A stretch of DNA of 51,651 nt, taken from contig WFTO01000400.1 in the NCBI GenBank assembly GCA_015485435.1, forward strand, positions 1 to 51,651, given 5' to 3'. Below, one piece after another: positions 11,053 through 28,902 of this stretch. The stretch comes from Anaerolineae bacterium. GTDB taxonomy: Bacteria > Chloroflexota > Anaerolineae > J102. Position 1 is the stretch's first letter. Every line of letters begins with the position of its first letter. Under the pieces are notes generated by a model. That model did no database searches, was not told the origin of the DNA, and saw nothing but the letters and a program-made list of their open reading frames with translations. Made by a program: the position numbers and the translations under genes.

Positions 11053-11095
11053 GCCGACCGGGACCGTTAACCGGTCGGCGTTTCTGTTTCCTTTT
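11053..11095 (+). terminator. Intrinsic terminator of the HEAT-repeat gene (overlaps the 3' end of the convergent DUF1905 gene)
   Basis: GCCGACCGG - 9-nt loop - CCGGTCGGC followed by GTTTCTGTTTCCTTTT. Confidence 0.65.
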
Positions 11096-11354
11096 CATCC
11101 ACTGCATCGAGGATGACAACCACCTCTTCACCAACCTCAATGCCCAATTTCTGACGAAGACGCGCGTTGATCATGATAAAATGTCGTCCATCTCCGGTAG
11201 GGAACGCGGAACCATCGTAATCGCCGCCGTTGATGGTGCCTTTGACTTTAATTCGTGACCGACTGTTGAGTTCGGCGCTGATAAACCGGGGGAATTCGAC
11301 GCAGTAATAATTGCCCCTGCGCACCAGTGGTCCGATAAAATGGATATCCGCCAT
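11067..11354 (-). CDS. DUF1905-family small protein
   Basis: Pattern GPLVRRGNYYCVEFP...KVKGTINGGDYDGSAFPTGDGRHFIMINARLRQKLGIEVGEEVVV resembles DUF1905 by recall. Confidence 0.7.
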   Translation of the reverse strand: MADIHFIGPLVRRGNYYCVEFPRFISAELNSRSRIKVKGTINGGDYDGSAFPTGDGRHFIMINARLRQKLGIEVGEEVVVILDAVDEKETETPTG

Positions 11355-11496: not shown

Positions 11497-12582
11497 TTAT
11501 TTTTGCAGCAAATCTTTTGTGACGCGCACCAATGTCGGTGGATGAAAGAGCATGTTGGCGTAGGTCGCATTGGCCATAGGGCACGCGCATTCTTTGTTAA
11601 AGATGCTTTGCCGCAAAGCCTTCATTTCGGGGCTTCGCCATAAGCGGTCGAAATCGTACTCCACCTGGCGAAGATTCCCGACAGGTTCCGCCCGAATGCA
11701 ACAACTCCAAATGTCCCCATTCGGCGCAATATGGACACTCGCCCAACTGGCATAGCAGTCAATCACCTGTCTGCGTTCAAACAAAGTCCGTTTGGCGATC
11801 TGATAGTACTGAGCGCGAAAACTTTGGGTGATGCGTGCAAACCCCCTGGCTGGCGCCTGTCGGGCCTGGGTGGAAAGAAAGTCCGCCACTGGAGCGTATG
11901 CTTCAGGCAGGGGTGTGATCCCCCAGCCCACGGTGTCCAACTCCACCCGTTCCTCTGCCACCTCGGTAATGTAACTATCCGGCTGCAAAAATTGCAACCC
12001 TTCATAAATCTCTTGGAATCGATGGATGTTGAACCGACTGATCACGGTGTGCACCGTCAGCACAAGGTTGGCGTGTTTCTTCTGCAGAGCCTTCAGCCCT
12101 TGCCATGTGGCCATGGCCCGCTCCCAGTTGCCAGGCACGCCCCGAATGTCATCATGCTCTGCCCCTACGCCATCTAAAGAGAGATTGATTCCGATATCCG
12201 TCCCCCGGCAGACCCTGCACATCCGATCGGTGGCTTCCAGGATTCGTTGGGTCAATAAACCGTTGGTGGGGATGGTGATGTAGGTGGGACGCGTACGCCG
12301 CCATCCGGCAATCACCAGATCATCCAAATCCTTTCGTAAGAAAGGTTCACCCCCAGTGAATGTCAGATATTCCACCGATGTTCCAATGCTGGCGAATACC
12401 CGATCCCACTCCTCGAGGGTCATGTCATCATTTGGTTTTCGCCACACATCGCAGGTGCGACAACGACTATTGCAACGATAGCTGACCGAGACCACCACCG
12501 AAAATGGGTGAATGGGCGGCCAGCCGAATCGGCGAAATGCCCAATAGAGGGGGAGTTTTGGAACGAGAGAGATCAGAGACAC
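11497..12582 (-). CDS. Radical SAM protein with a C-terminal SPASM/twitch-like Cys-rich domain
   Basis: CX3CX2C motif [19 protein letters not shown]-binding motif (FTGGEPFL). C-terminal cysteines CYASW...[12 protein letters not shown]...ECACPMAN. Confidence 0.85.
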
Positions 12583-12615
12583 GGCCGGAAAACGCTTTGT
12601 TGATGAAACGGGGGG

Positions 12616-14103
12616 TTAAGACGCCGGCTGAGGCGAGCTTTTGGCATCGGGCGGATTCGACGACGGCGGCGTCTGAACCTTGTCGCCAATAAAGAACCGC
12701 TTGGCCGTTGCCAGGGTGGTGGGAAGTTCCAGCCAAAAACGTTTGTTTGAGATTTTTTCCCAGATGCGTTTGGGGCGATAGAGATAGAAGCGACGATACG
12801 CCTCCCGCCATTTCCTTATTACCAACTCTGGATCATAGTCGCCATCATATACCGTAAACCGTGGTTTCTCATCATGAATGGCCAGATCTCGCCAGGTATT
12901 GGCGAATACATGCCCTTCCGACTGAATTAAATCCCACATGGCTGTTCCGGGGAAGGGAGCCGCCAGCATGAAGTTTGCCAGGTCGGGGTCCAACTCCAAG
13001 GCCAATTGGATGGTTTTCTCCATGCTTTCTTCGGTTTCTCGCGGCATGCCAAAGATAAAGAAGCCCATGGTTTGCAGCCCGGCGGCTTTGGCCCATTTGA
13101 AAGCGTTGCGCACCTGGTCCAGGGTCTGTCCCTTGCGGATGACGTGGCGCAACATCCAGGGGTCTCCGTTTTCCACCCCGAATCCCACGCGTTTGGCGCC
13201 GGCGGCTTTCATCAAGTGGAAGAGCTCAGGATCGGTGTGGTTGACTTTCATGCCATGCACGGTCACCCAGGGCACGGTGTTCAGGCCTTCTTGCACCAGG
13301 GCCCGACAAAGTTGTTTCGCCCGAGGCAGTTTCAGATTCCAGATGTCGTCGGTCACGCCGATCTCTGTGGCATGCAGTTCTCTGACCAACCAGCGCCATT
13401 CCGCCACCACGTTCTCTACGCTGCGTCCACGCCAGGTATCGCCCGTGACCGGTTTTGAACAAAAAGTGCATTTGTAGGGGCAACCGCGGCTGGTCAGGAT
13501 GGTAAAGGAACGGGCGTGGGGGTCTAATCCATCGGTTAAGGGCTGAAGATTGGTGTATTTGTCGATTTTGAAGAGATCGTGCGCCGGGAAGGGAAGGGCG
13601 TCCAGATCTTGAATCATGGGTGAGTCAGGAGAGACATAAATATCTTCTCCGAATCTGAAATTCAATCCCGGAATGCCCAGGTCCTCTGGCCGCTTACCCC
13701 GTTCCAGAGCGTTCACGAATTCGACAAGGCCTTCTTCGGCCTCGCCTTTAAAGGTATAATCGACATAAGGGTGCTCGGGCCCGAGGCTCTCTGCAGGCAT
13801 GATGGTGAGATGGGGACCACCCAATATGGTGGTCATGCCATATTGTTTGCCGATCTTTGCCATCTCCCAGGCGTCTTCGATCAAGGGTGTTGCCGCGGTA
13901 ATGCCCAAAACCCGGTAGGGCTTGCCAGCTTCCTCCGCTTGGTCAAGATAAAATTCGAGGGGATAATCTTCAATGGAGGCGTCATAGATAAAGACATCAT
14001 GTCCAGCTTCGCGCAGGACCGCGGCCAAATACCCCAGGCCGAGAGGGATATGTTTTCGAGATGACCAGACTTTGGATTCAGGGCTTGCGAGAATGACTCT
14101 CAT
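12616..14103 (-). CDS. Cobalamin-binding-domain radical SAM protein (class B architecture, subtype I)
   Basis: N-terminal Rossmann-like domain (MRVILASPE...GLGYLAAVL...ILGGPHLT) followed by [12 protein letters not shown]. Paralogous to 20138-21610 and 21759-23261. Confidence 0.9.
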
Positions 14104-14180
14104 GGGACGTTTTATCTCTTTAATGCGCTAGTAGCGCCAATATGAAAGCATGAGGGCTGATGGGGATAGCCATGGATTTG

Positions 14181-14201
14181 GATTGGGAAACCATCCCAAT
14201 C
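14181..14201 (-). promoter_or_regulatory. Intercistronic hairpin GATTGGGA-AACCA-TCCCAATC
   Basis: Perfect 8-bp stem located 7 nt downstream of the stop of 14208-15629, with no U-run. Confidence 0.35.
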
Positions 14202-14207
14202 TGCATG

Positions 14208-15629
14208 CTAAGGAAGTAATGGTTGTACAACGGGAAAAAAGCCTTTCCGAGAAGCCCCCTTGATGATCCGGCCTTTGCCGTCCTCGAAGGGAGCCCAATC
14301 GCGATGGGCACATTCGATGCGATACCCAACATCGGTGCTAAAGCTACCCACGGCTTTTCGCGGCCAATCACGCACAGGCACTCGCAGAAGGTTCCTAGCA
14401 CCGCGCCAGGCGATGCCTTGCCATCCGTAAAGCTTTCTGGCCAGCCAGTCGTATCCCTGGGCCAGTTGTTCCGGAGTCATTTGCTTTGGGTAATAGGTGA
14501 CATGGCTGGTGTCATAGAGGGACCACGGGATCCCGGGGATCAGGCGGTTTTCTTTTTCCCACTGGGCTCGTTGGGGAGTGCCGACGTAGGGCGTAAGGAT
14601 GGTGATGCTTACGGCATCCAGGCCGCTGTCACGGATAAACTCGTAGGTGGTCTGGAATATCTCAGGCGGATCGGCATCAAAACCGAAGACGAACAACCCG
14701 ACAACGCCGATTCCAGCGGCGTGAATGCGATCAATGACCTGACGGTAGCGTTCGAGGTTCCCCTTGGCTTTGCCGCCCAATTCGCGTCGGTTATTGGGGT
14801 TGGCGCTTTCAAAGCCGATAAATAGTTTATCCAGGTGCGCCTCACGAGCAAGTTTCAACAGATCGGAATGGTCTGCGGTTAACTGTTCTGCTTGGGCCGT
14901 CCAACCTTGCAGCGGCAGCTTTCGCAATGCTTTGAACAGTGCTTCCATATAGTCAGGATTCAGCCTGAAGTTCAGGCCGAAATTATCGTCGGTTAGGAAG
15001 AATCGTTTGATCTTGCGTCGTTGGATCTCTTCGATTACTGCATCAATGGGTCTTAAACGCATGACTCGACCAGACACGCGGATGGCTGTGCAAAAGGTGC
15101 AGTTGCGAGGGCATCCACGGGTGATCTCCAGATAGGGCGTCCAATAGTTTCGGTTCTCATCGACTTGTTTTAACACTCGATCGGTGATGGGTTGCAAGTC
15201 ATCCAGATTCGCCCATTCTTCATCCACATACATGCGTTTGAGTTCGCCCCGATCGAAGTCTGCAATCATCTGGGGCCAGGTGCGGTACGCTTCGCCAACC
15301 GCGATGGCATCCGCCCAACTCAAGACGTCATCCGGAGCAAGCGTGGCGTGGGCGCCGCCGATGACAACCGTGGCGCCTCGAGATTTGAGCTGTCTGGTGA
15401 GCCAGCGAGCGCGGTCGATCTGTAAGGTTTTGGCTGTAATGCCCACCAAATCGCCAGGCCCCATGGCCTCGAAGGGCACCGGCCTCAAGTCTTCGTCGAT
15501 GATTTCGACAGGGATTTCTTCTGGCACCAGCGATGCCAATCGCATGAGGGTGTAAGGGGCCATGGTGGCTTTGCCCCAAATACGGCCATCACGGCCTGGC
15601 TGGATAAGGTAAACCTTGCGCACGCTCAT
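14208..15629 (-). CDS. Cobalamin-binding-domain radical SAM protein (subtype II, copy 2 of a tandem pair)
   Basis: B12-type domain ending VIGGAHATL. TRGCPRNCTFCTA motif. About three quarters of residues are identical by eye to the neighbour at 15659-17074. Confidence 0.9.
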   Translation of the reverse strand: MSVRKVYLIQPGRDGRIWGKATMAPYTLMRLASLVPEEIPVEIIDEDLRPVPFEAMGPGDLVGITAKTLQIDRARWLTRQLKSRGATVVIGGAHATLAPDDVLSWADAIAVGEAYRTWPQMIADFDRGELKRMYVDEEWANLDDLQPITDRVLKQVDENRNYWTPYLEITRGCPRNCTFCTAIRVSGRVMRLRPIDAVIEEIQRRKIKRFFLTDDNFGLNFRLNPDYMEALFKALRKLPLQGWTAQAEQLTADHSDLLKLAREAHLDKLFIGFESANPNNRRELGGKAKGNLERYRQVIDRIHAAGIGVVGLFVFGFDADPPEIFQTTYEFIRDSGLDAVSITILTPYVGTPQRAQWEKENRLIPGIPWSLYDTSHVTYYPKQMTPEQLAQGYDWLARKLYGWQGIAWRGARNLLRVPVRDWPRKAVGSFSTDVGYRIECAHRDWAPFEDGKGRIIKGASRKGFFPVVQPLLP

Positions 15630-15658
15630 GTATCGTGACTCTAGAATGAAAGATGGGA

Positions 15659-17074
15659 TCAGGCAGGTTGCAACACATGCATGAAGCCTTCTCGGGAGGC
15701 TCCTTTGATGATCTTTCCTAAACCATTCTTTGTAGGGGCCCAGTCGCGGTGCTTGTAGGCGATGCGGTAACCGAGATCGGTGCTAAAACTGGCGACGGTT
15801 TTGCGAGGCCACGCCTGCATTGGGTGACGGCTGAGGTTGCTCCATCCCCGCCGCAGAATGCTGGGCCAGCCATAGAGCTTACGCGTGATCCAATCGTACC
15901 CCATAGACAGCTCTTCGGGCGTCATGTGTTTGGGAATGTAGGTCACGTGGCTGGTGTCATACAAAGACCAGGGCACATGTTCAAGAATCCGGCCTTCCTC
16001 GAGTAATGCGGTGCGCTGGGGCGTGCCGACAAAGGGTGTGAGAATGGTCACGCTGACGCCGTCGAGATCGCTATCTTTAATGAAGTCATAGGTGTGCTCA
16101 AAGACATCCATGTTGTCGGCATCAAACCCAAAGACGAAAAGTCCAACGACGCCAATCCCGGCATCGTGAACTTGTTTGATGGAGCGTCGGTATTGCTCCA
16201 GATTGCCTTTCGCTTTGCCGCCGATCTCGCGACGGTTGGCTGGATTGACCGTTTCAAAGCCGATAAATATTTTGTCCATATGCGCTTCCCGAGCCAGCTT
16301 CAAGAGCTCGGGATACTCCGCGGTAAGCTGTTCTGCCTGGACCGTCCAGCCATGAAGAGGCAGTTTGCGTAACGCCTTGAACAATTCCTCCATGTATTCT
16401 GGGTTCAGCCGGAAGTTGAGACCGAAGTTGTCATCGGTTAAAAAGAATCGTTTGAGTTTACGTTGCTGAATTTCTTCAACCACTGCCTCCACTGGTCGCA
16501 AACGCATCACTCGTCCAGAGACGCGGATCGCGGTGCAAAAGGTGCAATTGCGCGGGCATCCCCGAGTGATCTCCAGATAGGGTGTCCAGTAGCGCCGATT
16601 TTCATCCACTTGCTTCAGGACGCGATCGCTGATGGGCTTGAGGTCGTCCAAATTGACCCATTCCTCATCCACATAACGAGGTTTGAGTTGCCCCTGGTCG
16701 AAGTCTTTTATCATTTGGGGCCAAGTGCGATAGGCTTCGCCCACGGCGACGGTGTCCGCCCAACTCTGCACGTCGTCGGGATCCAAGGTGGCGTGTACGC
16801 CGCCGATGACAATGGTTGCATCCTGGGCTTTTAATCGTTTTGCAAGCCAGCGCGCGCGGTCTATTTGCAATGTTTTGGCCGTAATACCCACCAGGTCGCC
16901 CGAACCGATTTTGTCAAATGGCACGGGGCGTAAATCTTCGTCGATGATCTCAACGGGGATATCATCCGGAACCAGGGACGCCAACCGCATCAACGTATAG
17001 GGGGCCATGGTGGCTCTTCCGAAGATACGCCCATCACGGCCAGGTTGGATAAGATAAATTTTACGTAGGGTCAT
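15659..17074 (-). CDS. Cobalamin-binding-domain radical SAM protein (subtype II, copy 1 of a tandem pair)
   Basis: VIGGVHATL. TRGCPRNCTFCTA. Collinear paralogue of 14208-15629, separated from it by 29 nt. Confidence 0.9.
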   Translation of the reverse strand: MTLRKIYLIQPGRDGRIFGRATMAPYTLMRLASLVPDDIPVEIIDEDLRPVPFDKIGSGDLVGITAKTLQIDRARWLAKRLKAQDATIVIGGVHATLDPDDVQSWADTVAVGEAYRTWPQMIKDFDQGQLKPRYVDEEWVNLDDLKPISDRVLKQVDENRRYWTPYLEITRGCPRNCTFCTAIRVSGRVMRLRPVEAVVEEIQQRKLKRFFLTDDNFGLNFRLNPEYMEELFKALRKLPLHGWTVQAEQLTAEYPELLKLAREAHMDKIFIGFETVNPANRREIGGKAKGNLEQYRRSIKQVHDAGIGVVGLFVFGFDADNMDVFEHTYDFIKDSDLDGVSVTILTPFVGTPQRTALLEEGRILEHVPWSLYDTSHVTYIPKHMTPEELSMGYDWITRKLYGWPSILRRGWSNLSRHPMQAWPRKTVASFSTDLGYRIAYKHRDWAPTKNGLGKIIKGASREGFMHVLQPA

Positions 17075-17182
17075 AAAAGGGCGAGGAAAAGCGAAAGCAA
17101 GTGGAGAGGGGGTTGGTATTGAGGATTACATGATTATACCGGGAAACCCGTCAAAGCGTGAATTTTGACCTGAAGCGCTCTG

Positions 17183-17389
17183 TTAACCCAGGTTGTCAAT
17201 GTATTTCTGAAGTTGCCGTGGATGGAACTTGATGTAATCGTGGGGGATGATCTGCGCCATTTCCTCTTCCGAGAGGCGCATGCGCAAGATGGATAGCGCA
17301 TCTTCGGGCGATTCACCGTAAGCCAGTTTGTACTTGCCATTTTTCATTTTAAAGAGAAACATATGGGTGGGATGATCAAAGCTACTCAT
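17183..17389 (-). CDS. 68-aa hypothetical protein embedded in the radical-SAM array
   Basis: Same strand as the array. AGGA lies 5 nt upstream of the ATG. No Cys, TM segment or signal peptide. Sequence: MSSFDHPTHMFLFKMKNGKYKLAYGESPEDALSILRMRLSEEEMAQIIPHDYIKFHPRQLQKYIDNLG. Confidence 0.55.
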   Translation of the reverse strand: MSSFDHPTHMFLFKMKNGKYKLAYGESPEDALSILRMRLSEEEMAQIIPHDYIKFHPRQLQKYIDNLG

Positions 17390-17503
17390 AAATGTCCTCG
17401 TAATCTGCGTCTGGCCAACGGATCAACCGTCTCCACTGCGAATTTGTAAGCCTGCCATGACCGAATGACGTCATGTATCGACGTTTCAACCAATGATGGC
17501 AGT

Positions 17504-18910
17504 CTAGGCCTTGATGAGCGAGCCGCGATATAGCTCGGCGCCGTGCATTACTGAATCCAGACCTTTGTTGATTTCGTCGTCATACTTGCCGGCGATGAGG
17601 TCACGATAAAATTGATAATCGATGCCCTTGACTTTTTCATCGCCTGGGAAGCGATGATAGTTGTCTTTGGACATGAGGCTCTTTCCTTCGGCGATGAGCT
17701 GGTAGCCAAGTGCTGAGCCGGGATAGGGGGCGTAGAAGGAAATGGAGGGCATGACGCGCTTCATGGTTTTGAGCATGCGCATGGTCTTGAACGCATCTTC
17801 TCTGGTTTCGCCAGGAATGCCTAACATGATGTTCGACCAGAAAACCGGCGGCTGTTCACCTTTGGCTTCCAACTCGTCGCCCAGGCGATTCACCAAATCA
17901 ATGACGAAGAAGTTTTCCTCTTCGGTCACTTCTTTGTTCAAAATCTTCAAAACGCGATCGCTTCCCGACTCAAAGCCGATGGAGATGGTTCGCCAATTGG
18001 TTTCTTTCACCAAAGCAATGAATAGCTCTGGCCACTGGACGACGGTGTCGGCTCTGGCCGCGGCCCAATAGGTCCAACGTTTGGTCTTGCGCGGATATTT
18101 TTCCAACCACTCTTCCAGCCAGCTGGGGTTCTGAAAGAACATAGAATCGTGAATCACGACGGAGCCAACGCCATATTTCCTGTCCAGATAGTTGAGCTCG
18201 TCAATGACCATGTCTACGGGCCTGCGTCCCATCAGTGGAATGTAGGAACTCTCATTGCAGAAAACGCACTTCCAGGGGCAAACCCGACTGGTCAGGATAG
18301 TGGCAACCGGACCTGGTCCCCAACCGCATTCGGGTTCCATGGGCCAGCGCCACTTCCAACGACGTTTCATCCGCCATCCTCCCGCGGGCTTGGGCCATAA
18401 TTCGCGGTCGATCATGGGCCACTCGGCCATGCTTTTTGCGCTTTCTCCGGAAAAAATCCTGGGAAAACTCTCGGGGTCTTTCACCAAGTCTACAATGACT
18501 TTCTCGCCCGCGCCCATGCAGATTTTATCGAAAGCTTCCACCGACAGCATCTCTTCGGGGGCGACGGTGGCATGCATGCCGCCAACCAGCACCAAGCCGT
18601 TCGGATTGATCGTTTTGAACAGCTCAGCGGCTTTTTTGGCAGGGGGGAAGGTGTAGCTACGAACATTCATCAACAACATGTCGTAGCCCTGGAGTTTGGG
18701 GGCTAGCTGGCTCCAGGAGGTGACGGTACGTGTGGATGCAAGGTCAGTTAGAATGCCGTTCTGGTGCAGAATCGTCCGCAACAAGCCTAAGCCGTGGTCT
18801 TGCCATTGTTCATGTGGCCCGCCTGGATTGACCAAGTCACCTAGATCGCCCAGATCGAGCCACAGTATATTCGATGTTTGACGCTTTCCCCAGGGGAAGA
18901 AGGTGGCCAT
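17504..18910 (-). CDS. Cobalamin-binding-domain radical SAM protein (subtype III)
   Basis: LVGGMHATV ends the N-terminal domain. SRVCPWKCVFCN motif. I prefer the ATG at 18910, which has GGAGGAA 8 nt upstream, over the TTG at 18928. Confidence 0.85.
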   Translation of the reverse strand: MATFFPWGKRQTSNILWLDLGDLGDLVNPGGPHEQWQDHGLGLLRTILHQNGILTDLASTRTVTSWSQLAPKLQGYDMLLMNVRSYTFPPAKKAAELFKTINPNGLVLVGGMHATVAPEEMLSVEAFDKICMGAGEKVIVDLVKDPESFPRIFSGESAKSMAEWPMIDRELWPKPAGGWRMKRRWKWRWPMEPECGWGPGPVATILTSRVCPWKCVFCNESSYIPLMGRRPVDMVIDELNYLDRKYGVGSVVIHDSMFFQNPSWLEEWLEKYPRKTKRWTYWAAARADTVVQWPELFIALVKETNWRTISIGFESGSDRVLKILNKEVTEEENFFVIDLVNRLGDELEAKGEQPPVFWSNIMLGIPGETREDAFKTMRMLKTMKRVMPSISFYAPYPGSALGYQLIAEGKSLMSKDNYHRFPGDEKVKGIDYQFYRDLIAGKYDDEINKGLDSVMHGAELYRGSLIKA

Positions 18911-18929
18911 TGTTTCAAATTCCTCCAAC

Positions 18930-20087
18930 TTATTGACTGCTGCCTCTCTGGCTATCGTTGGGAATCACCAGTGGGATGGTGGTAGAGCTTGTTTGACCAT
19001 TGGATGAATGGCCGTCACGATCATCTTTCACGTGGATCATCTGTCCCCCGAAGTCATCATCATCGGGCCGATTGCCAAAGGATTCGAACGGTGTCGGCTT
19101 CCACCATGCCCATTCGACGCAGGTGTTGCACGGTGTGATTTCGTCATATCGGCCTTCCAGATGCATTTTTCGTAACGTTTGCATCTTGGGGCCGTTCCAA
19201 TTTTTCATGACCCGAACAACGCCGTCCTCGTCGATGACATTGCCCAAATCGAAATCAAGGTTGAAGTCGCGATCGCACATGGCGATGGAGCCGTCCCAAT
19301 AAATGTGGACATGATACCAAAGGTTGGGACAGGCGTATCGTTTGGGCAATTGCAACTGTTTCTCTGGACGCAGCGCGCTGATTTCTTCGATCTGATCGCC
19401 CCAAGAGTCAAAAGGCTTGATGTGCACCAAATCCACGCCCGGGACCGTCTTCCAATAATTCACAAATGCTTCGGTCTCTTCTCGGGTGTTCTCCATCTCG
19501 ATGATTTGGAGATTCACAAAGGTTTGGTATCCACCCTCATGTTTCATTTCTACGAATCGGCGGATATTGTCATTAGTGCGCTCATAATCCGCGTTCACAC
19601 GAATATTCTCGTACGTCTCCGGACGCATGCCATCCTGGCACAGATAAATCACATTCAAGCCTGCCTCTAGCAACTTCCGGCCCCGCTCCTCGGTGAGCAG
19701 GGTGGCGTTGGTGCTGATCTCTGATCGCAAACCTTTTTCGGTGCAATAGGCGACCATATCGTAAATGCGAGGATGCAGCAAGGGCTCTCCCCAGATATGA
19801 AGCGTGGTCGCCTTCACCAAGGGGGCCATTTCATCGACAATCTGTTTGAAAACCTCCCATTTCATGTATCCATTGACGCGCGTAATTTCACCCCGACCCG
19901 TAGGACACATGATGCAACGCAGGTTGCAAATGTTGGTGGATTCGATATACATGCGGTCGGGCGGAGGCACATATTTGGTTTGACCTGTTTCATAGGCCAG
20001 ATACTTGACAGGCCCCAGGGCTTTGTTCCGATAGATTTTGGTTTTGTTGCGAAGTTTTTCGCGGAAGGTCAACGAGCGTTTGGTCAT
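18930..20087 (-). CDS. Radical SAM/SPASM-domain protein with an acidic/Ser-rich C-terminal tail
   Basis: NICNLRCIMCP and WGEPLL motifs. SPASM-like YACPNLW...GSIAMCDRD...ITPCNTCVEW. Its stop is followed immediately by the RBS of the next gene. Confidence 0.85.
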   Translation of the reverse strand: MTKRSLTFREKLRNKTKIYRNKALGPVKYLAYETGQTKYVPPPDRMYIESTNICNLRCIMCPTGRGEITRVNGYMKWEVFKQIVDEMAPLVKATTLHIWGEPLLHPRIYDMVAYCTEKGLRSEISTNATLLTEERGRKLLEAGLNVIYLCQDGMRPETYENIRVNADYERTNDNIRRFVEMKHEGGYQTFVNLQIIEMENTREETEAFVNYWKTVPGVDLVHIKPFDSWGDQIEEISALRPEKQLQLPKRYACPNLWYHVHIYWDGSIAMCDRDFNLDFDLGNVIDEDGVVRVMKNWNGPKMQTLRKMHLEGRYDEITPCNTCVEWAWWKPTPFESFGNRPDDDDFGGQMIHVKDDRDGHSSNGQTSSTTIPLVIPNDSQRGSSQ

Positions 20088-20137
20088 AAAATGGAAAGGC
20101 GGAAGGGGATGAGCGTGGTTTTGAAGGGGTGTTGTGG

Positions 20138-21610
20138 TTATGACCAGGAGACCGAGCCGAATAGTTCGCCCTTAGTGCGCTGGAATTTCTTAAATAGCCC
20201 AGCATGGGTTAAGGCGCTGCCGATTTTTCGCACGGGCGTGATCTGAGCCACATTCCACAGCAGGTCACCGGCGGTGGGCCCGAAGCTCTCGCGATAGATC
20301 CGACGTTTTTTAGCCTCGATAAAGCGCTGACGAGCTTCTATCGCTTTTTGGCTGAGAACGTGATCAGGCACGTCGGAGACATTCATAAAGGGAGCAATGG
20401 ATGATTGATAGCTGTTATAGTAATAACTCTTCGTAAAGTCGGCATTGTACACCAGATCTGGATGCCGCCGTAAAAGTTCACTCCAAAGTTGCGTGCCGGG
20501 GAAAGGCGTGGCAATGGAGAACATCGCCTCGGTTAAAGGCAGACTGGCCGCGAATTCAATGGTCTCTTCGATCGTTTCTTCGGTGTCGCCGGGCAGACCT
20601 AAAATGAAGTACCCCTTGGCGCGAATGCCCGCGGCCTCTGTCCAGGTAACGGCGTCTCGAACGCGTTTCAAATCGATGTGTTTGGCGGTTCGCTTCAGCA
20701 CGTCTTCATTGCCGCTTTCGATGCCATAATGGATTTCTCGACATCCAGCCTGATACATTTTGCCCAATAATTCAGGCGTAACTCGATCGACGCGCGCCAG
20801 ACATTGCCAGCGAATATCCATCTTGCGCTCGATGAAGTGATCCAAAATTTTATCCAACCGACGAACATCGATGGTGAACAGGTCATCGATAAAGTAAAAA
20901 TTACGCACGCCATAGGTTTTCATTAGGTGTTCCAGTTCATCGGCGATGTTTTCAGGGCTGCGTTGACGATAGGTGCGGCCTACAATACCTTTGAAGCAAA
21001 AAGAACAGTTATAAGGACACCCACGACTGCTTAGCACCGTCAGCATTTGCTCCCCGGTTGGCGCGTACAATGGGTAGTCATCCAGTTGGAAAAGGTGGCG
21101 CGCGGGATAAGGCAATGCATCCAGATCTTTGATGAGCGCGCGTTGGGGATTGTTCAAAATACGCCCATCTTGCTTATACCATAGCCCCTGAAAGCCATCC
21201 CAACGATCATTATGGTTCTCCAGGGCGCGGAGGAATTCGATGAAAGTCTCTTCACCTTCACCGTAGATAAGATAATCGATGTGTGGGTTGTTCAACGTTT
21301 CATTGGGCAGGGAGGTCGCGTGCGGCCCACCGATGAGCACGGGAACGCCTAGGGCGTCTTTCAGCATGGCGCTGGCTATCTCAACGCTGGCGTAGCTGGT
21401 GGTCATGGATGTGAAGGCCACCAGATCTGGTTTGAAATCGATGACGTCCTGGACTTCATCTTCAAGGGGGCGACAGGGCTTTAACCCGAAATCGAAGATG
21501 GCCACCTCATGACCATCCTGTTCGGCTACAGCAGCAAGATAGCCCAACCCGAGGGAAGGATAGGCATTGACGAGTTCATTCCATTTCGGGCCGATGAGTG
21601 CGACTTTCAT
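20138..21610 (-). CDS. Cobalamin-binding-domain radical SAM protein (subtype I)
   Basis: GLGYLAAVA...LIGGPHATS followed by SRGCPYNCSFCF. GGAGGA lies 6 nt upstream of the ATG at 21610; the ATG at 21616 abuts the RBS. Confidence 0.9.
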   Translation of the reverse strand: MKVALIGPKWNELVNAYPSLGLGYLAAVAEQDGHEVAIFDFGLKPCRPLEDEVQDVIDFKPDLVAFTSMTTSYASVEIASAMLKDALGVPVLIGGPHATSLPNETLNNPHIDYLIYGEGEETFIEFLRALENHNDRWDGFQGLWYKQDGRILNNPQRALIKDLDALPYPARHLFQLDDYPLYAPTGEQMLTVLSSRGCPYNCSFCFKGIVGRTYRQRSPENIADELEHLMKTYGVRNFYFIDDLFTIDVRRLDKILDHFIERKMDIRWQCLARVDRVTPELLGKMYQAGCREIHYGIESGNEDVLKRTAKHIDLKRVRDAVTWTEAAGIRAKGYFILGLPGDTEETIEETIEFAASLPLTEAMFSIATPFPGTQLWSELLRRHPDLVYNADFTKSYYYNSYQSSIAPFMNVSDVPDHVLSQKAIEARQRFIEAKKRRIYRESFGPTAGDLLWNVAQITPVRKIGSALTHAGLFKKFQRTKGELFGSVSWS

Positions 21611-21673
21611 CCGCATTCCTCCAATAGTTGAATTAGTGTGTGGGTGGAGTCAGTGCATCTTTGTCCCCAGTCT

Positions 21674-21744
21674 ATCATGAGAAGATGAAAGAAAACTGAA
21701 TTTGTTGAAGGTTGGTGATGTGAAATCTTTCATCTTCCCATGAT
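21674..21744 (-). promoter_or_regulatory. Long intercistronic stem-loop (18-bp stem, 35-nt loop) between two radical-SAM genes
   Basis: Arms at 21674-21691 (ATCATGAGAAGATGAAAG) and 21727-21744 (CTTTCATCTTCCCATGAT). The single non-Watson-Crick position is G-U in the minus-strand (sense) RNA and A-C in the antisense. Confidence 0.5.
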
Positions 21745-21758
21745 CGCCGGGCATCAGA

Positions 21759-23261
21759 TCAAGAAAGCGCTTGGGCTTCCATCTGTTTGCGCAAGCCGGT
21801 CTTTTCTTTTTTCGGCAAGAATGTGCGCATAGCGATTCGCAGGTTCCGGGGGAGGTTCACCCAGAAATCCTTTTGCTTCACCCGACGCCAGATAGGACCT
21901 GGGCGCAAATAGAATTGCCTGTAAGCCCGTCGATACATTTCTTCCATGAGTTCGGCCGTCAGATCGCCCATCTCGAAACGGGCCTTTTGTTCAAAGAATA
22001 CATAATCTTCCCAATCTTCGATCAAAAGGCGACCATGGCGTTTGACCTGCTCCCATACGGCCGTGCCTGGGTAGGGGGTCATCATGCTGAAGTTGGCGAT
22101 GAGGGGGTCTAATTCGATGGCGAAATTGATGGTGTCCTGCATGGTTTCACGGGTGTCGCCAGGCAAGCCGATGATCATGAAGGCTATGGTCTCGATGCCC
22201 GCCTCTTTGGTGATCTTGAAGGCTTCGCGAATAGTGTCAAGGTCGATGCGCTTATCGATGGTTTTCAACAGTTCTGGATTGCCCGTTTCTACGCCAAACG
22301 CTGTACGCTTGAGCCCGGCTTTCTTCAACTTGAACATCAGCTCTCGATCGACCAGATTGGCGCGAATGCCATTGACGAAGATCCAGGGGACGTGATTCAG
22401 CTCCCGCTCGATAAGGAGGTCTGCAATCTGATGCAATCGTTTCTTGCGGATGTTGGCGCTGTCATCCAGCACGCCAATCTCCTGAGCCCCCATGTTTTTC
22501 ACCAGGTGCTCCCACTCGGCAATCACATTCTCGGGCGTGCGGCTACGCCATTTGACCGGCATAATGGATTGGGAACAGAAGGTGCAACGGTATGGACAGC
22601 CGCGGCTCGTGAGAATGCTGAAACTTTTGGATCCATCCACCGCATCGGTGGCGGGCTGCAAGTTTGTGTACTTTTCCATCTTGAAAAGATGGTAAGCTGG
22701 CCACGGCAAGCTGTCGAGATCGGCAATGGCGGGGCGATCCGGGTTGCGATGCAGCTCCCCATCCGATGTTTTGTACGTAATGCCCAGGACATCTTTCCAA
22801 AGGCCTTTGGCTGGGTCCATCAACGCCTGGGTGGAAAAGGTCGGATAGTGACGTAGAAAATCCTCGACTTTCTCAGAAATTTCGATCCAGGTTTCTTCGC
22901 CTTCGCCCCGAACCACAATATCGATGGGACCCTGGGTCAAAGATTCATAATCCAAATCTTCGGAGACCACGCTGGGGTGCGGTCCGCCAATGACGATGGG
23001 CACATCCCACACTTTTTTGATTTCGATGGCATGTCGCCATGCCTGCTTTACCTGTGGCGTGTTGGCGGTGATGCCGATGAGATGAGGCTTGTATTCAAGG
23101 ACAAACTCACTCAGAGGTTGTTCCTCGACGTCGGCATCGAAGACAATGACTTCGTCGCCACGTTCTTCGGAGATCGCGCCGAGATAAGCTAAGCCCAAGT
23201 GCGGGCTGGTGCGAGTGTCGATAGGAAGCCGGAAGCGGGGATTGATCAATAGAACACGCAT
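21759..23261 (-). CDS. Cobalamin-binding-domain radical SAM protein (subtype I), first gene of the array
   Basis: MRVLLINPRF...GLAYLGAIS...VIGGPHPSV followed by SRGCPYRCTFCS. Start moved to the internal ATG at 23261; the 28 upstream residues of the ORF call have no counterpart in the paralogues. Confidence 0.88.
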   Translation of the reverse strand: MRVLLINPRFRLPIDTRTSPHLGLAYLGAISEERGDEVIVFDADVEEQPLSEFVLEYKPHLIGITANTPQVKQAWRHAIEIKKVWDVPIVIGGPHPSVVSEDLDYESLTQGPIDIVVRGEGEETWIEISEKVEDFLRHYPTFSTQALMDPAKGLWKDVLGITYKTSDGELHRNPDRPAIADLDSLPWPAYHLFKMEKYTNLQPATDAVDGSKSFSILTSRGCPYRCTFCSQSIMPVKWRSRTPENVIAEWEHLVKNMGAQEIGVLDDSANIRKKRLHQIADLLIERELNHVPWIFVNGIRANLVDRELMFKLKKAGLKRTAFGVETGNPELLKTIDKRIDLDTIREAFKITKEAGIETIAFMIIGLPGDTRETMQDTINFAIELDPLIANFSMMTPYPGTAVWEQVKRHGRLLIEDWEDYVFFEQKARFEMGDLTAELMEEMYRRAYRQFYLRPGPIWRRVKQKDFWVNLPRNLRIAMRTFLPKKEKTGLRKQMEAQALS

Positions 23262-23498
23262 AGACGTGAAACCTCTCAATGTGTTGGTTGGGGGCAGTAA
23301 TTCGAAAGATAAACGATGATAAGTTTTCTGAAAGGACAAGGACAAACCGACCGGTCACGAAGTTTTTCTATGCACAAACGCAAGATTCCATCACCGATCA
23401 TTCGTTTCATTTTCTGGCAAACAGCCATTTTACTGTAAATCAGCCAAATGGCCCAGTAAAATGCGTTGAAATTATAGGCGCAGTCCCGATAGATGTCA

Positions 23499-23526
23499 AA
23501 TTTTTATGAAAGAGTTCATAAAAATT
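23499..23526. promoter_or_regulatory. Perfect 12-bp inverted repeat AATTTTTATGAA-AGAG-TTCATAAAAATT in the divergent intergenic region
   Basis: Read directly from the sequence. It lies between the radical-SAM array start (23261, minus) and the methyltransferase start (23594, plus). Confidence 0.4.
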
Positions 23527-23593
23527 ATCTGGTTGTGGCGTCTTGTCAGCGGGGAGGACCATTTTTTCATCGGTGGGTGGAGGTTATGGCATA

Positions 23594-24355
23594 ATGCTAG
23601 CTATGGAGCTTCAACAGGCAGATCTAGATTATTTCGCTCGAGGTGAATGGCAGAACCCGCAATTCTGGCGTCGATTTGGCGGGCGCCCCGATTTTACCGA
23701 TACGCATGTGTTGGATGTTGGTTGTGGGCATGGCAGCATGGTCATTGATGTGGCGCGCGCAGGGGCCCGGCAAGTCGTGGGATTGGATCTGAATTGTCGA
23801 TTAATAGCATTCGCCCAAGCCAACCTACTTCAACATCATGCCGATGTCGCCAACAAGGTGACGTTCCTGTGCCAGGATCTAAAAGATTACCCCAAGGATG
23901 CGGTTTTTGATTATATGATTTCTAAGGATAGCTTTGAGCACATTCTAGACCTGCCCGGCATGCTGGCGGAGATGAAAAAACGGCTGAAGCCGGGTGGGCG
24001 CATTTATGCAGGATTCGGCCCCCTCTACAACAGTCCCCTGGGGGATCATGGGTATTCTCAATCGCGATTGCCGTGGCGTCACCTCATGTTGGGTGAGAAG
24101 GCGTTGGTCGCCCGGGTTCAAGCGCGTTGGCCTCATGCGCAGATCGACAGCCTTCACGATCTCGGTCTGAATGGCCTGGCCCTGGCGGATTATGAACGGA
24201 TTTTTGCTGAATCGGGACTACGGATCATCTCATTCCAAACCAACCGTAGCGAAAAACTCCTTTCCCGGATACTTTCTCTGCCGGCACACATCCCCTTTCT
24301 CCGAGAATTATTCACCTTTAACGTGTACGTCATTTTGGAAAAGCCGTCATCCTAA
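23594..24355 (+). CDS. Class I SAM-dependent methyltransferase
   Basis: Motif I VLDVGCGHG and post-I VVGLDL. KPGGRIY. GGTGGAGG RBS upstream of the ATG at 23594. The ORF call starts at a TTG at 23543. Confidence 0.85.
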   Translation: MLAMELQQADLDYFARGEWQNPQFWRRFGGRPDFTDTHVLDVGCGHGSMVIDVARAGARQVVGLDLNCRLIAFAQANLLQHHADVANKVTFLCQDLKDYPKDAVFDYMISKDSFEHILDLPGMLAEMKKRLKPGGRIYAGFGPLYNSPLGDHGYSQSRLPWRHLMLGEKALVARVQARWPHAQIDSLHDLGLNGLALADYERIFAESGLRIISFQTNRSEKLLSRILSLPAHIPFLRELFTFNVYVILEKPSS

Positions 24356-24443: not shown

Positions 24444-24899
24444 TTATGGTGCCCTTTTTGCTAAAAATGCACGGATTTCAAGATGCAGGGTGGTTTCGGG
24501 CGGGGTATAGGGACGCAACGGCGTCGATCGCGCCTTTGTAATGGCCGCTGACAAATCTTCCAGGTGAAAACAGGGGATCAAATAGCCTTCTGCTCCGAAG
24601 CGTTTGATGATTTGCTCCTGGTGTTTGTCGAAACGGTCGGGGTTAGGAACGCTAATCAAAGGAACGCCCGCGTAAAGCACCTCTACGGTCGTGCCAAAGC
24701 CGCCATGTGCAATGACGATGCTGGCATTTCGAATGTATTCGGTAATGTCTGGCAGGAATCGGAACCATTCGCCATGTGTGGGCTCATACAGCCCCTGTCC
24801 AATCTGAAATACGACCGACTCATCCAACGTGGGCGCCAACGTATCCACCGCCCTTACCAGGTCATCGAATTCGGTAGTGCCCACCGTGCAGAAGATCAT
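24444..24899 (-). CDS. Alg13-like / GT28 C-terminal-domain glycosyltransferase subunit (PssE/Cps14G-like)
   Basis: MIFCTVGTTEFDDLV...IAHGGFGTTVEVL. ATGA overlap with the upstream Alg14-like gene. Confidence 0.8.
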   Translation of the reverse strand: MIFCTVGTTEFDDLVRAVDTLAPTLDESVVFQIGQGLYEPTHGEWFRFLPDITEYIRNASIVIAHGGFGTTVEVLYAGVPLISVPNPDRFDKHQEQIIKRFGAEGYLIPCFHLEDLSAAITKARSTPLRPYTPPETTLHLEIRAFLAKRAP

Positions 24900-25438
24900 A
24901 GCAGCCTCCCAGCAAAGCGGGCGCGCGGGTACTTCTCTGCCAGAGATTGCCATTGCACATAGAATCGATCATACAAATGAAGATAATAAATAATGCGCGC
25001 CGTAAAGCTAAGGAATTCAATCTTCGACGCAGTCTCGATGAAGATGTGAGGGACCCCGCGCAGTTTGGCCACAAGTGCGATGGGAATTTGCAAACTAGGG
25101 CCGGCGCCAACCACAAGATCTGGTTGGGTCTGATCGAGAATCCGCCACGCGGTGATGATGGCCCCTGGCATTTTACGCATTACAGCCCAAGGGCCCTCGG
25201 TGCGCCCATGTTTTTTTTCTCGAGGCTGTTTGATACGAAACACCGGCCCAGGCACGCGTATTTTCGTTTCAGAAACGACATCATAATCGGGCACCACGTA
25301 ACAATAATCAAACTCTGGGCCTAACAGATCCACCAGCCGCAGCATTTGCTTGGTATGTCCGCCCGCGCCCAATACAATCAGCAATCGCTGACGGCCACGT
25401 GCATCCATACCTGGTTCAGAGGGCCCTTTTGCCGCCAT
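24896..25438 (-). CDS. Alg14-like glycosyltransferase partner subunit (PssD/Cps14F-like)
   Basis: LLIVLGAGGHTKQMLRLV motif. Start trimmed to the ATG at 25438 (25408 is also possible), because the long ORF call overlaps the upstream gene by more than 200 nt. Confidence 0.75.
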   Translation of the reverse strand: MAAKGPSEPGMDARGRQRLLIVLGAGGHTKQMLRLVDLLGPEFDYCYVVPDYDVVSETKIRVPGPVFRIKQPREKKHGRTEGPWAVMRKMPGAIITAWRILDQTQPDLVVGAGPSLQIPIALVAKLRGVPHIFIETASKIEFLSFTARIIYYLHLYDRFYVQWQSLAEKYPRARFAGRLL

Positions 25439-26471
25439 GATTGTCGTACCGGGCTGGAACAGGAGTGTAAGGCGGCAACGACACAATCTGGCGCTCTCGG
25501 CTGGCCCGAAGCACCTGTTCGGCCAGAAACACCGCGCGCAACCCCTCTTCGCCATTGACCAAGCCATTATATCCCTGTCGAATCGCTTCGACGAAGGTTT
25601 CGAGTTCAGCCCGTAATGGTTCCACTCGCGGGATCTCATACTTTGTTACGGCGCCTTCGGTGACCCCCACCGTGACCAGGCCAAGCCAATGATCTTGGGC
25701 CGAACGATTTTCATAAAACCAAAGCTCCTGGGTGAGATAGTTCACCAGAAACATGCCTCGCTCTCCTAACACCGACAGCTCGCGAATCTTGGTAGGGGTC
25801 AGCCAATTGATGTCCATCATGCCAACGACGCCATCATCAAAGCGTAAAATGCTAGACACCATATCTTCGTGGCTGTCATGCAAGGTCTGTTTGACCTGTG
25901 CGGCAATGGTGCGAATGCCGGCGCCAGTCAGATATTCCATAATATTCAATTCATGAGTGGCCAGATCAAACACGACTCCTACATCCTTAACGCGTGGGGG
26001 GAATGGGCCAATGCGACGGGCGTGGATTTGATAAATCTGCCCCAGCTGGCCAGCATCCAACCGCTCTTTGAGTGCAATCACGGCGGGATTAAAGCGTTCG
26101 ATATGCCCCACGCCTAATAAGACGCCATGCTCATGGCTGGCTGCGATCATATCTTGGGCCGCGGCCACCGAGTCAGCCATGGGTTTTTCGACAAACGTAT
26201 GGATTCCAGCAGCCATTGCGTCTTTGGCAGCGCGTTGATGCAAATGTGTCGGCAAGGCAATGGTGACCACGTCCAGCGCCTCTTTTTCGATCATTTCATG
26301 ATAGTCGCTATAAGGACGCGCTTTGTAGGTGCGAGAAACGCGCTCACGTAAGGCCGGGTCTAAGTCGGCAATCGCGACGAGGGTTGTTTGGGGCATACGG
26401 GCATATACACGGGCGTGGTTTGCGCCCATTGAGCCCACGCCTATAACTGCTGCACGGAGAGGCTTTGTCAA
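25416..26471 (-). CDS. Gfo/Idh/MocA-family NAD-dependent sugar oxidoreductase (WbpB-like)
   Basis: Rossmann motif AAVIGVGSMGANHARVY and the VEKPMA motif. TTG start with GAGGTG 6 nt upstream. Confidence 0.85.
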   Translation of the reverse strand: MTKPLRAAVIGVGSMGANHARVYARMPQTTLVAIADLDPALRERVSRTYKARPYSDYHEMIEKEALDVVTIALPTHLHQRAAKDAMAAGIHTFVEKPMADSVAAAQDMIAASHEHGVLLGVGHIERFNPAVIALKERLDAGQLGQIYQIHARRIGPFPPRVKDVGVVFDLATHELNIMEYLTGAGIRTIAAQVKQTLHDSHEDMVSSILRFDDGVVGMMDINWLTPTKIRELSVLGERGMFLVNYLTQELWFYENRSAQDHWLGLVTVGVTEGAVTKYEIPRVEPLRAELETFVEAIRQGYNGLVNGEEGLRAVFLAEQVLRASRERQIVSLPPYTPVPARYDNHGGKRAL

Positions 26472-26548
26472 GAGTGCACCTCATCAGGAAAAGTTGCGTA
26501 ATCAATCTTGTACATCAGGGATAATGTCATACATTGCTGGTGCATGTT

Positions 26549-26575
26549 CACATTTTGTGGTCTCTACAAAATGTG
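26549..26575. promoter_or_regulatory. Perfect 10-bp inverted repeat CACATTTTGT-N7-ACAAAATGTG upstream of the oxidoreductase gene
   Basis: Read directly from the sequence. It lies in the 357-bp gap at 26472-26828, 78-104 nt upstream of the TTG start on the minus strand, and is flanked by direct TGTTCAC words. Confidence 0.4.
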
Positions 26576-26828
26576 TTCACCAGACGGAGGCATGTCCGCC
26601 TCGGTGCAAAGGGCCCGATGGTGCGTTTTCAGTCGGTCGGGGGGACCAAAATCGCGAATCAGGTCAGTCTACGGAGTCCTCTGTGGACAGAAGGAGGACC
26701 TTCGTCGCCTCCCGAGCCGTCAAGACATGGTAGGAAGACTACGGACCGGTGTTTATAGTTTAGCAAACGGGCATGAAAACCGGATGAAAAATATCCATGC
26801 TTTTGATGACAGGACGTTCAAAGAGTGG

Positions 26829-27467
26829 TTATGAATCTTTGGGGCCAAAAATTGGCGTGTTGGGTTCACAAAGATGTGCGGGCAATGGTTGGATTCGTGC
26901 CGGAACGCCCATCGCCAATGTCCACGGAGGCACATCCTGAGTCACCACCGCGCCAGCAGCCACCATGGCGCCCTCTCCAATGCGCACGCCTGGCAGCAAC
27001 GTAGCATTTGCGCCGATGGTCACATGGTCTTCGATGATGGGGCCCTTCAACGTCAATGAATGTCGTTGGCGCAGGGGATATTTATCGTTGGTCAAGGTTG
27101 CATTGGGGCCGATAAAAACGTTACTGCCAATGGTTGTGTAAGTGGGAATATACACCTGGCTCTGGATACTTACAAAATCTCCGATGGTTATATGACCATC
27201 GAGAATGGATGCCGTTCCCACCAGTACATAATCGCCGATTTGCGTGTGCTCGCGAATCAAGACATGATGACCGGTTTTGAATCCTACGCCGATAACGACA
27301 TCGCCATAGATGATCGCCTGTGCCCGCACGATGCTGTCATCGCCCAGCCGCGCGGGACCACAGTCCTCTTGATAAACAAGCCCTACCAGAGCTTGGGGTT
27401 GAATGAGGACATTACGCCCCAGGATTGCGCGAGTAAATTCAGGTGATTGATTCATGCGAAGGGTCAT
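26829..27467 (-). CDS. Left-handed beta-helix (hexapeptide-repeat) sugar N-acetyltransferase (WbpD-like)
   Basis: Repeated [LIV]-G-x4 hexapeptides ([25 protein letters not shown]...[13 protein letters not shown]...[25 protein letters not shown]). Confidence 0.85.
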
Positions 27468-27468
27468 T

Positions 27469-28809: not shown

Positions 28810-28902
28810 AAGCTTAGAATCTTTCCATGGGGTTTTGGAAGCGCGCAGTAGCTATTGTGCAGGAGGTGATTGCCAGAGGCAGGGGACAGCGATCGCCAGA
28901 GA

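Follow-up and report, generated by a model that had tools for sequence, protein, structure and literature searches.

Few pools of uncharacterised enzyme chemistry are as large as that of the class B radical S-adenosylmethionine (rSAM) enzymes. Among the described members, AprD4 is a diol dehydratase, GenK and GenD1 are C-methylases, and HpnJ carries out a glucosamine ring contraction and is encoded together with the GT2 glycosyltransferase HpnI and the flippase-like protein HpnL, which presumably belongs to the same flippase-like family as the neighbours of several homologues described below. In the Anaerolineae contig WFTO01000400.1, the whole 51,651-nucleotide stretch of which was analysed here and is referred to as the window, eight co-directional minus-strand rSAM genes (R1 to R8) span positions 11497-23345 and enclose one gene for a small protein, S. 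This array is real, conserved and uncharacterised, and consists of three modules together with a new partner protein. Six class B and two twitch-type rSAM enzymes recur as a conserved unit in a major and poorly cultivated phylum, and none of them falls into a curated family.

A conserved array of eight radical SAM enzymes

Among GTDB species genomes, 367 relatives were found; 79 of their loci were retrieved, and the window proteins were mapped onto 80 related Chloroflexota loci, where many loci with incomplete family sets end at contig ends. At least four of the seven array families are present in 40 of the 80 loci and all seven in 16, and 332 of 333 array homologues are co-oriented, with identities of 51-95%. 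The median identity to the window proteins ranges from 62% for S up to 81% for R5, and the share of alignment columns that are at least 95% identical is 36-55% by family, with R5 at 55%, and 29% for R8. Homologues of R8 occur in 48 loci (51-94% identity), those of R5 in 33 and those of R7 in 30. More than 1351 homologues of R4 were found, the best 120 of which are at least 58% identical and come, where the source is named, almost entirely from Chloroflexota, and the pairing of R3 with R4 is repeated in four other loci (L014, L022, L035 and L038). The close relatives of the window array are Anaerolineae and Caldilineales metagenome-assembled genomes (MAGs).

The order R8-R7-R6 is kept in 27 loci and R4/R3-R2 in 43, while R5-S is kept in 30 loci and is followed by R1 in 17. 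Block order is shuffled between lineages while the three blocks stay intact, and an extra, ninth B12-domain rSAM (B12-rSAM) gene lies upstream of R8 in many loci. The array is a composite of three co-oriented modules (R8-R7-R6, R4/R3-R2 and R5-S-R1) that are also found apart, and as a composite it has been conserved among Anaerolineae, Caldilineales and related Chloroflexota. An earlier note on this DNA, which had proposed an undescribed radical tailoring system, named dispersal of the orthologues or their membership in characterised families as what would speak against it; the orthologues are co-localised, and neither outcome was found.

The eight minus-strand open reading frames (ORFs) listed in that note all exist, and the CX3CX2C and GG(P/A/V/M)H(A/L/P)(T/S) strings quoted there are all found in the translations. 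Pfam Radical_SAM (PF04055) scores 52-93 bits in all eight proteins against a cutoff of 29.5 (R8 93, R7 89, R4 79, R2 73, R6 66 and R1 60 bits), and in the homologue alignments the CX3CX2C cysteines are 100% conserved in every array rSAM family. The assignment of six proteins to class B is borne out by Pfam for four of them, with B12-binding (PF02310) above its 32.1-bit cutoff in R2 (57.9), R5 (34.5), R7 (80.1) and R8 (57.4) and slightly below it in R3 (31.3) and R4 (29.8). For R4, an AlphaFold model with a predicted local distance difference test (pLDDT) score of 73 shows an N-terminal Rossmann domain, and the comparison of structure predictions suggested in the earlier note, made with this model, returned AprD4, TsrM, CysS, MgmA and TokK as the best Foldseek matches; AprD4, TsrM, CysS and TokK match along the whole length, and the model gives R4 a class B fold despite its sub-cutoff Pfam score. 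R2, R3, R4, R5, R7 and R8 combine an rSAM core with an N-terminal B12-type Rossmann domain, the two features that define class B, and their use of cobalamin is predicted from these features; AprD4 carries a B12-type domain yet is not known to use cobalamin.

The two SPASM/twitch C-termini described earlier are recovered in part. SPASM (PF13186) exceeds its 21.5-bit cutoff in R1 (30.7 bits) and R6 (38.9 bits), but the seven-cysteine motif of SPASM proper, which holds two auxiliary clusters, is found in neither protein. R1 has five invariant auxiliary cysteines (276, 294, 295, 332 and 334), and the invariant cysteines of R6 are 54/58/61 and 253/271/320/323, the latter four being auxiliary, with two more in a distal position. 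These patterns fit a single-cluster, twitch-like domain at the C-terminus of R1 and R6.

No array protein reaches the cutoff of any curated NCBIfam family, and all scores are far below, so that the profile searches proposed in the earlier note (Pfam and NCBIfam) confirmed the domains and placed no protein in a characterised family. The best NCBIfam match of R7 is the ApyD model (NF050148, 204 bits against a cutoff of 750), that of R8 is the HpnJ model (TIGR03471, 185 bits, with R2 at 167, against 577.6), and that of R2 is the BchE model (TIGR02026, 169 bits, with R7 highest at 184, against 481). R3 and R4 match best an MJ_1487 model (80 bits against 251), the annotation of which is speculative only in the literature. 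Among the other models, AprD4 (NF033070) is matched best by R2 (113 bits against 500), the C-methyltransferases of ribosomally synthesised peptides with post-translational modifications (RiPPs; TIGR03975) reach at most 129.5 bits against 281.85, the MgmA-type model (TIGR04014) at most 110 against 360, a ladderane-type lipid B12-rSAM model at most 134 against 360, a twitch-rSAM subfamily model 78 against 170, and Tes (NF045702) 35 bits in R6 against 450.

By sequence, the nearest solved structure is AprD4 for R8 (5e-22) and MgmA, followed by AprD4, for R7 (3e-25 and 7e-24), and MgmA (PDB 9ccb) is also the closest for R4 (2e-12) and R5 (1e-4), while AprD4 is the top Foldseek match of the R4 model (4e-15). 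R6 is nearest to BtrN (8e-9) and DesII (3e-7) and R1 to BlsE (7e-8), with the peptide-acting SkfB and PqqE scoring just slightly below these sugar-enzyme matches; the match of R6 to GDGT-MAS (Tes, PDB 7tol) is marginal (4e-4), confined to the core and below BtrN and DesII. Profile scans of the window found no leader-peptide family, peptidase, RiPP recognition element (RRE), exporter, or bch, hopanoid or aminoglycoside gene, in agreement with the earlier observation that no partner of a known pathway is visible, and an Rfam scan of the window found no riboswitch or other RNA family. In the searchable literature, we found neither the array nor S described, and no B12-rSAM enzyme in cytidine diphosphate (CDP)-sugar operons.

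The small protein S and its link to R5

No family in Pfam or NCBIfam matches protein S. Of its 95 homologue clusters, nearly all have a length of 68 amino acids (aa), some being called from Met10 to give 59 aa, and every taxonomic label given among them is Chloroflexota. S is cysteine-free, with a mean column identity of 78% and 19 invariant positions that include F4, KLAYG, EDAL and a C-terminal LG. AlphaFold predicts a β-β-α-α-β-α fold (pLDDT 80), and a fold search against the PDB returned nothing with an E-value below 0.38, a null result that rules out a PqqD/RRE-like, ubiquitin-like or MbtH-like protein.

S adjoins R5 in all 30 genome loci that have S, and in the metagenome loci an S match follows R5 in 73 of 80, as a separate ORF in 68 and in one frame in 5. 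An exhaustive profile search for S among 1.84 billion representative proteins returned only 99 relatives, some of which are the C-terminus of an R5 orthologue. Such R5-S fusions include P0300, P0228, P0256 and P0277, along with many proteins of 505-560 aa. P0300 aligns to R5 over 432 residues at 57% identity, and its last 68 residues are 32% identical to S; when it was used as a query, dozens of clusters of 505-560 aa aligned over the full length, S domain included. In the fused proteins the N-terminal motif of S is replaced by a linker. These observations speak for S as a subunit or dedicated partner of R5, and R5-S is defined here as a putative two-part B12-rSAM family in which S lies directly downstream or is fused. 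Because other lineages carry S as a C-terminal extension of R5, it is best seen as an enzyme partner and no RiPP precursor, and its fixed length and predicted fold likewise rule against a precursor peptide; with S as a subunit of R5, the array therefore loses its only candidate precursor.

Small ORFs of other kinds are found between the modules of some related arrays. Toxin-antitoxin-like ORFs lie in the S-R1 or the R2-R5 interval (e.g., L026:13322-13615 and L014:14737-15120), and a lipoprotein of about 300 aa lies between S and R1 in one clade (L065, L074 and L075); as their sequences resemble toxin-antitoxin insertions or a clade-specific lipoprotein, they were rejected as parts of the system. 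Outside the window, a 909-aa protein (P0304) with about ten tandem units of about 85 aa weakly resembles the middle part of S in a profile comparison (five stretches, E 1e-5), by relation or by chance.

Genomic contexts and candidate substrates

With belief and doubt about evenly balanced, we read the array as a multi-step system for the radical tailoring of nucleotide- or lipid-linked sugars that are destined for envelope glycans or glycolipids. This reading is favoured because the contexts of homologues elsewhere and the nearest solved structures (AprD4, BtrN, DesII and BlsE) are linked to carbohydrates; from them we infer the substrate class, the reaction types and the service of all eight enzymes to one product. 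The domain content, the conservation, the module structure, the R5-S fusion and the genomic contexts themselves are observed.

The fused R5-S genes lie within CDP-3,6-dideoxyhexose operons or polysaccharide clusters in several independent lineages. Their operon partners score above curated cutoffs (rfbF 440-476 bits against 300, rfbG 522 against 278 and rfbH 543-711 against 423), and an rmlC-like partner scores 162 bits in L096 and 149 bits in L092 against a cutoff of 156. In L085, L086 and L097, rfbF and rfbG lie directly downstream of the fused gene, and in L096, a Saccharimonadales MAG, the order is rmlC-like, SDR, R5-S, rfbF, rfbG and rfbH. L092 and L093 carry the fused gene inside a Wzx/GT2/GT1/GT4/GT9/heptose polysaccharide cluster, L099 and L134 have a full and L088 a partial CDP-dideoxyhexose gene set, as identified by tblastn similarity or Pfam only, and a further fused clade is located in GT1/GT2/ABC clusters (L131, L141, L147 and L153).

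Homologues from the other modules are also found beside glycosylation genes. Eight of the 16 loci with a solo R4 homologue carry GT-C genes (TMEM260-like, PMT_2 or DUF2142), which often end about 100 nucleotides (nt) or less upstream of R4 on the same strand, and among these loci a flippase-like LPG_synthase_TM gene is present in L048 and L073 and a methyltransferase gene in L048. R8 and R2 homologues bracket a GT2 gene and a flippase-like gene in a Dehalococcoidia MAG locus (L004/L062), where the order is R8-like, GT2, flippase-like, R2-like and R4-like, as well as in L056. In the L049 clade, a Dol-P-hexose-transferase-like GT2 gene lies between the R4 and R8 homologues, and L049 adds a LIC_10190 membrane protein.

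In the proposed sugar pathway, the enzymes would work in the cytoplasm on activated sugars, whether CDP-6-deoxyhexose-type nucleotide-sugars, sugars linked to polyprenyl phosphate, or both kinds. At the [4Fe-4S] cluster held by CX3CX2C, each enzyme would cleave SAM reductively, and it would remove a hydrogen atom from a sugar carbon that is unactivated. After this step, the six B12-domain enzymes might perform C-methylation or a rearrangement, dehydration or ring contraction, as in GenK, AprD4 and HpnJ, and the two twitch-domain enzymes an oxidation, decarboxylation or epimerisation, as in BtrN, DesII and BlsE, with S serving as a non-catalytic subunit of R5 that is separate in the window and fused in other phyla. 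GT2, flippase-like and GT-C enzymes, encoded elsewhere or, in some lineages, beside the array, would then flip the tailored sugar and incorporate it into glycans or glycolipids of the envelope.

A fuller version of this proposal is tentative, and we consider it possible but on balance doubtful. It holds jointly that the array makes a new sugar or cyclitol with extensive radical tailoring, which could comprise several C-methylations, rearrangements or ring contractions on a hexose linked to CDP or polyprenyl phosphate, and that this product is a standard envelope component of Anaerolineae and Caldilineae; that S founds a new class of small obligate B12-rSAM partners; and that in other phyla, Saccharimonadia among them, fused R5-S contributes to the CDP-3,6-dideoxyhexose pathway a radical step that has gone unrecognised. 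If the sugar reading is true, Chloroflexota envelopes hold an unknown class of radical-modified sugar, the B12-rSAM enzyme with S is a new two-part enzyme form, and the classical CDP-dideoxyhexose (O-antigen sugar) pathway gains a new reaction. The R5-S fusion and its rfb context supply a concrete candidate substrate family, the thing that orphan rSAM enzymes usually lack.

Several observations weigh against the sugar reading. A search for homologues of rfb, hpnCDE and Wzx genes found none, either in the window or among the Chloroflexota array loci, and it is the absence of rfb that counts here. A family census of 116 co-directional neighbour clusters revealed no dominant glycosylation family or partner, and the non-rSAM gene seen most often beside the array encodes RtcB, which lies immediately upstream in the same orientation in 20 of 80 loci. 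One fused R5-S clade (L094:4718-9846/L130) follows hpnC-, hpnD- and hpnE-like squalene genes, the one context that points to isoprenoid lipids rather than sugars, and another fused clade is found among housekeeping genes. Unfused R5-S pairs stand without other rSAM genes on dozens of metagenome contigs (L100-L176), where the flanking genes, identified by eye, are an IscA/ErpA-like Fe-S carrier in 29 loci, a SufR-like regulator in 19 and a phosphoribosyl pyrophosphate synthetase in 8. The R5 of the window is only 46-60% identical to the fused R5-S clade, so that carrying the substrate of that clade over to it is an extrapolation. Similarities to PDB entries are also weak and driven by the rSAM core, and a protein methylase, MgmA, tops the list for R7, R4 and R5.

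Further details of these contexts were recorded. RtcB genes adjoin the array at, e.g., L013:387-1841 and L014:2258-5272, and several, such as that of L014 (about 996 aa), have an intein-sized insertion. The L094/L130 clade also encodes a 553-aa protein without a Pfam family, and examples of the genes beside unfused R5-S are L101:965-1378, L107:5086-5718 and L101:3467-4417.

Tailoring of the hydrocarbon chains of membrane lipids, by methylation, cyclisation, cross-linking or desaturation of alkyl or isoprenoid chains in the manner of archaeal Tes, Grs, Gms, Gmm, Cgm and Ted, is a rather unlikely alternative with a precedent, as archaeal B12-rSAM and auxiliary-cluster rSAM enzymes without a B12 domain act in sequence on one inert lipid class (preprint 10.1101/2025.10.20.683597). 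A self-contained array with variable flanks is expected for a bulk cellular substrate, the LPG_synthase_TM neighbours and the squalene-gene clade are consistent with lipids, and the array might play a part in making the branched or membrane-spanning lipids that have been ascribed to Chloroflexota, a phylum among the proposed sources of branched glycerol dialkyl glycerol tetraethers (PMC11868695). Against this stand the low scores of R6 with the Tes model and of all array proteins with the ladderane-type model, the rank of GDGT-MAS beneath BtrN and DesII, the lack of fatty-acid, ether-lipid or isoprenoid genes in the array loci, and the fact that the most informative contexts are nucleotide-sugar or glycosyltransferase operons. 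The array could instead be an island of independent rSAM modules that have different substrates and are merely co-located, or co-regulated for their needs for Fe-S clusters, cobalamin or anaerobiosis. That the modules occur apart, with R4 homologues alone in about 16 loci and R5-S pairs alone on metagenome contigs, that their order is shuffled, that there are two promoter-like sites (Table 1) and that an IscA-like carrier adjoins solo R5-S pairs would all suit an island. We nevertheless regard it as distinctly unlikely, since one-strand, short-gap co-localisation recurs across deep divergence in the 40 loci with at least four families while the flanks change, which is hard to explain without a functional link, and every module on its own shows glycosylation-related contexts.

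Maturation of a peptide or protein, in which R5 and R1 would act on S or on some unseen peptide, in a RiPP-like pathway or one to a peptide-derived cofactor, and the other enzymes would add further modifications, seems very unlikely. SPASM/twitch domains are common in peptide maturases, the RiPP enzyme ApyD gives the best NCBIfam match of R7, the protein glutamine C-methylase MgmA is the closest solved sequence for three enzymes, and the N-terminus of S is conserved (MSSFxxP) with low pLDDT at its first residues. S, however, is predicted to be folded and has a fixed length, no cysteine and a column identity unlike that of variable RiPP cores; its N-terminal motif gives way to a linker where it is fused to R5 in many lineages, and these fusions lie in sugar operons. 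Neither a leader-type family nor a peptidase, RRE or exporter was found in the window scans, and the score with the RiPP C-methyltransferase model remained at less than half of its cutoff (129 bits against 282). A role in RNA repair or modification tied to the RtcB ligase is highly improbable, as the window has no RtcB, its adjacency elsewhere may be inherited synteny within Anaerolineae although it extends over several array architectures, the homologue contexts outside Chloroflexota have no RNA genes, and we know of no B12-domain rSAM enzyme that acts on RNA.

The locus and its place among known systems

The features of the window are collected in Table 1. Gene-to-gene spacing within the array is 1-142 nt, as the earlier note had given it, and S begins 114 nt past R5; an ORF at 17134-17340 that overlaps S has no conservation, and the true small gene is the one tabulated. 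A single operon, as proposed earlier, is plausible, but there are two promoter-like sites, and three modules that can also be found apart describe the array better. The site between S and R4 may be an internal transcription start, and the overall number of promoter-like sites in the region shows no excess over shuffled sequence.

Table 1. Coordinates of the array genes, promoter-like sites and adjoining genes in the window
Feature	Position	Strand	Description
R8	21759-23345	-	B12-domain rSAM enzyme; paralogue of R2 (41% identity)
R7	20138-21616	-	B12-domain rSAM enzyme
R6	18930-20087	-	rSAM enzyme with twitch/SPASM C-terminal domain
R5	17504-18928	-	B12-domain rSAM enzyme; most conserved array member
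S	17183-17389	-	68-aa orphan protein, putative partner of R5
R4	15659-17074	-	rSAM enzyme with B12-like N-terminal Rossmann domain
R3	14208-15629	-	Tandem paralogue of R4 (76% identity)
R2	12616-14103	-	B12-domain rSAM enzyme; paralogue of R8
R1	11497-12582	-	rSAM enzyme with twitch/SPASM C-terminal domain
Promoter-like site	23471-23499	-	TTGACA-17-TATAAT, 12/12 sigma-70 consensus match only; upstream of R8, in the divergent region between R8 and the methyltransferase gene
Second promoter-like site	17133-17162	-	TTCACG-18-TATAAT, 10/12 consensus match only; between S and R4
Class I SAM methyltransferase	23543-24355	+	Pfam Methyltransf_25 and related; divergent from the array
Glycan-assembly cluster	24444-34527	-	Pfam: Alg13/Alg14-like, GFO/MocA oxidoreductase, hexapeptide acyltransferase, PMT-like GT-C, GT4, Wzy_C

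Start codons were corrected from homologues and gene calls. R8 probably begins at ATG 23261, giving 500 aa, and the likely starts of R5, R7 and the methyltransferase are ATG 18910, 21610 and 23594, respectively. For R1, the gene call in the public record has 308 aa and starts at window position 12423, whereas the ORF that starts with GTG has 361 aa and carries CX3CX2C at residues 37-44, upstream of the deposited start. As the Fe-S motif is lost in the shorter call, the start given in the record is almost certainly an error and GTG 12582 the real one.

The divergent class I methyltransferase noted earlier is present, but its place in the system did not hold, as a homologue was found in only one of the 80 other loci (L031). 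Likewise, the preference for a glycan or glycolipid over a peptide stands insofar as a carbohydrate is favoured, but not the argument from neighbouring genes on which it was based, since the glycan-assembly cluster that adjoins the array in the window is missing from the flanks of most related arrays. Both are lineage-specific neighbours, and because they are conserved only in the closest relatives they were ruled out as core parts of the system. A DUF1905 gene (95 aa; 11067-11354, minus strand), co-directional with R1 and immediately downstream of it, is probably also outside the system because it is kept in only about four related loci. Elsewhere in the window, adjacent Memo-like and AMMECR1 genes (44374-45855, plus strand; Pfam 200 and 158 bits) have no rSAM gene next to them; we take them to be two members of the uncharacterised 'AmmeMemoRadiSam' trio.

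Proteusin and other RiPP clusters (PoyB/C, ApyD), to which the array had been compared in the earlier note, have a comparable density of class B rSAM genes, but the comparison fails on content: the array has no NHLP/Nif11 precursor, peptidase or exporter, its sole small protein is a putative enzyme subunit, and the ApyD and RiPP models score far below their cutoffs. MgmA (QCMT), which C-methylates a glutamine of methyl-coenzyme M reductase, is the closest solved sequence for R7, R4 and R5, but its TIGR04014 model is not reached and the array hosts are no methanogens. The archaeal lipid toolkit (Tes, GrsA/B, Gms, Gmm, Cgm and Ted) likewise comprises several B12-rSAM and auxiliary-cluster rSAM enzymes; its genes, however, are mostly dispersed, the Tes model is not matched above cutoff, and the contexts of the array homologues point to sugars. 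BchE is the best model for R2, but the window has no bch genes and the array proteins fall outside that family.

The systems closest to the array act on carbohydrates. BtrN, DesII and BlsE are the top solved matches of R6 and R1, which have a single set of four to five conserved auxiliary cysteines as twitch enzymes do, although the likeness is confined to the rSAM core and no curated model was passed. CDP-3,6-dideoxyhexose operons of the ascarylose or abequose type (rfbF, rfbG, rfbH, an epimerase and a reductase) host fused R5-S orthologues in at least four independent lineages, but their genes are lacking in the window and in the Chloroflexota array loci, and no B12-rSAM step in them is reported in the searchable literature. 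AprD4, GenK, GenD1 and HpnJ share the N-terminal B12-type Rossmann domain and rSAM barrel with the array enzymes; AprD4 is the best solved match of R8 and of the R4 model, and HpnJ gives the best NCBIfam model for R8 and, just behind BchE, the second for R2. The array proteins score far below the AprD4 and HpnJ cutoffs and are no members of the HpnJ family, with neither hpnI/hpnK-type or other hopanoid genes nor aminoglycoside genes in the window, yet the HpnJ-like gene pattern of GT2, flippase-like protein and B12-rSAM enzyme recurs in the Dehalococcoidia homologues. Unlike AprD4, GenK and HpnJ, the array holds six such enzymes together, and it is conserved across many Chloroflexota MAGs of several orders rather than being distributed as a patchy secondary-metabolite cluster.

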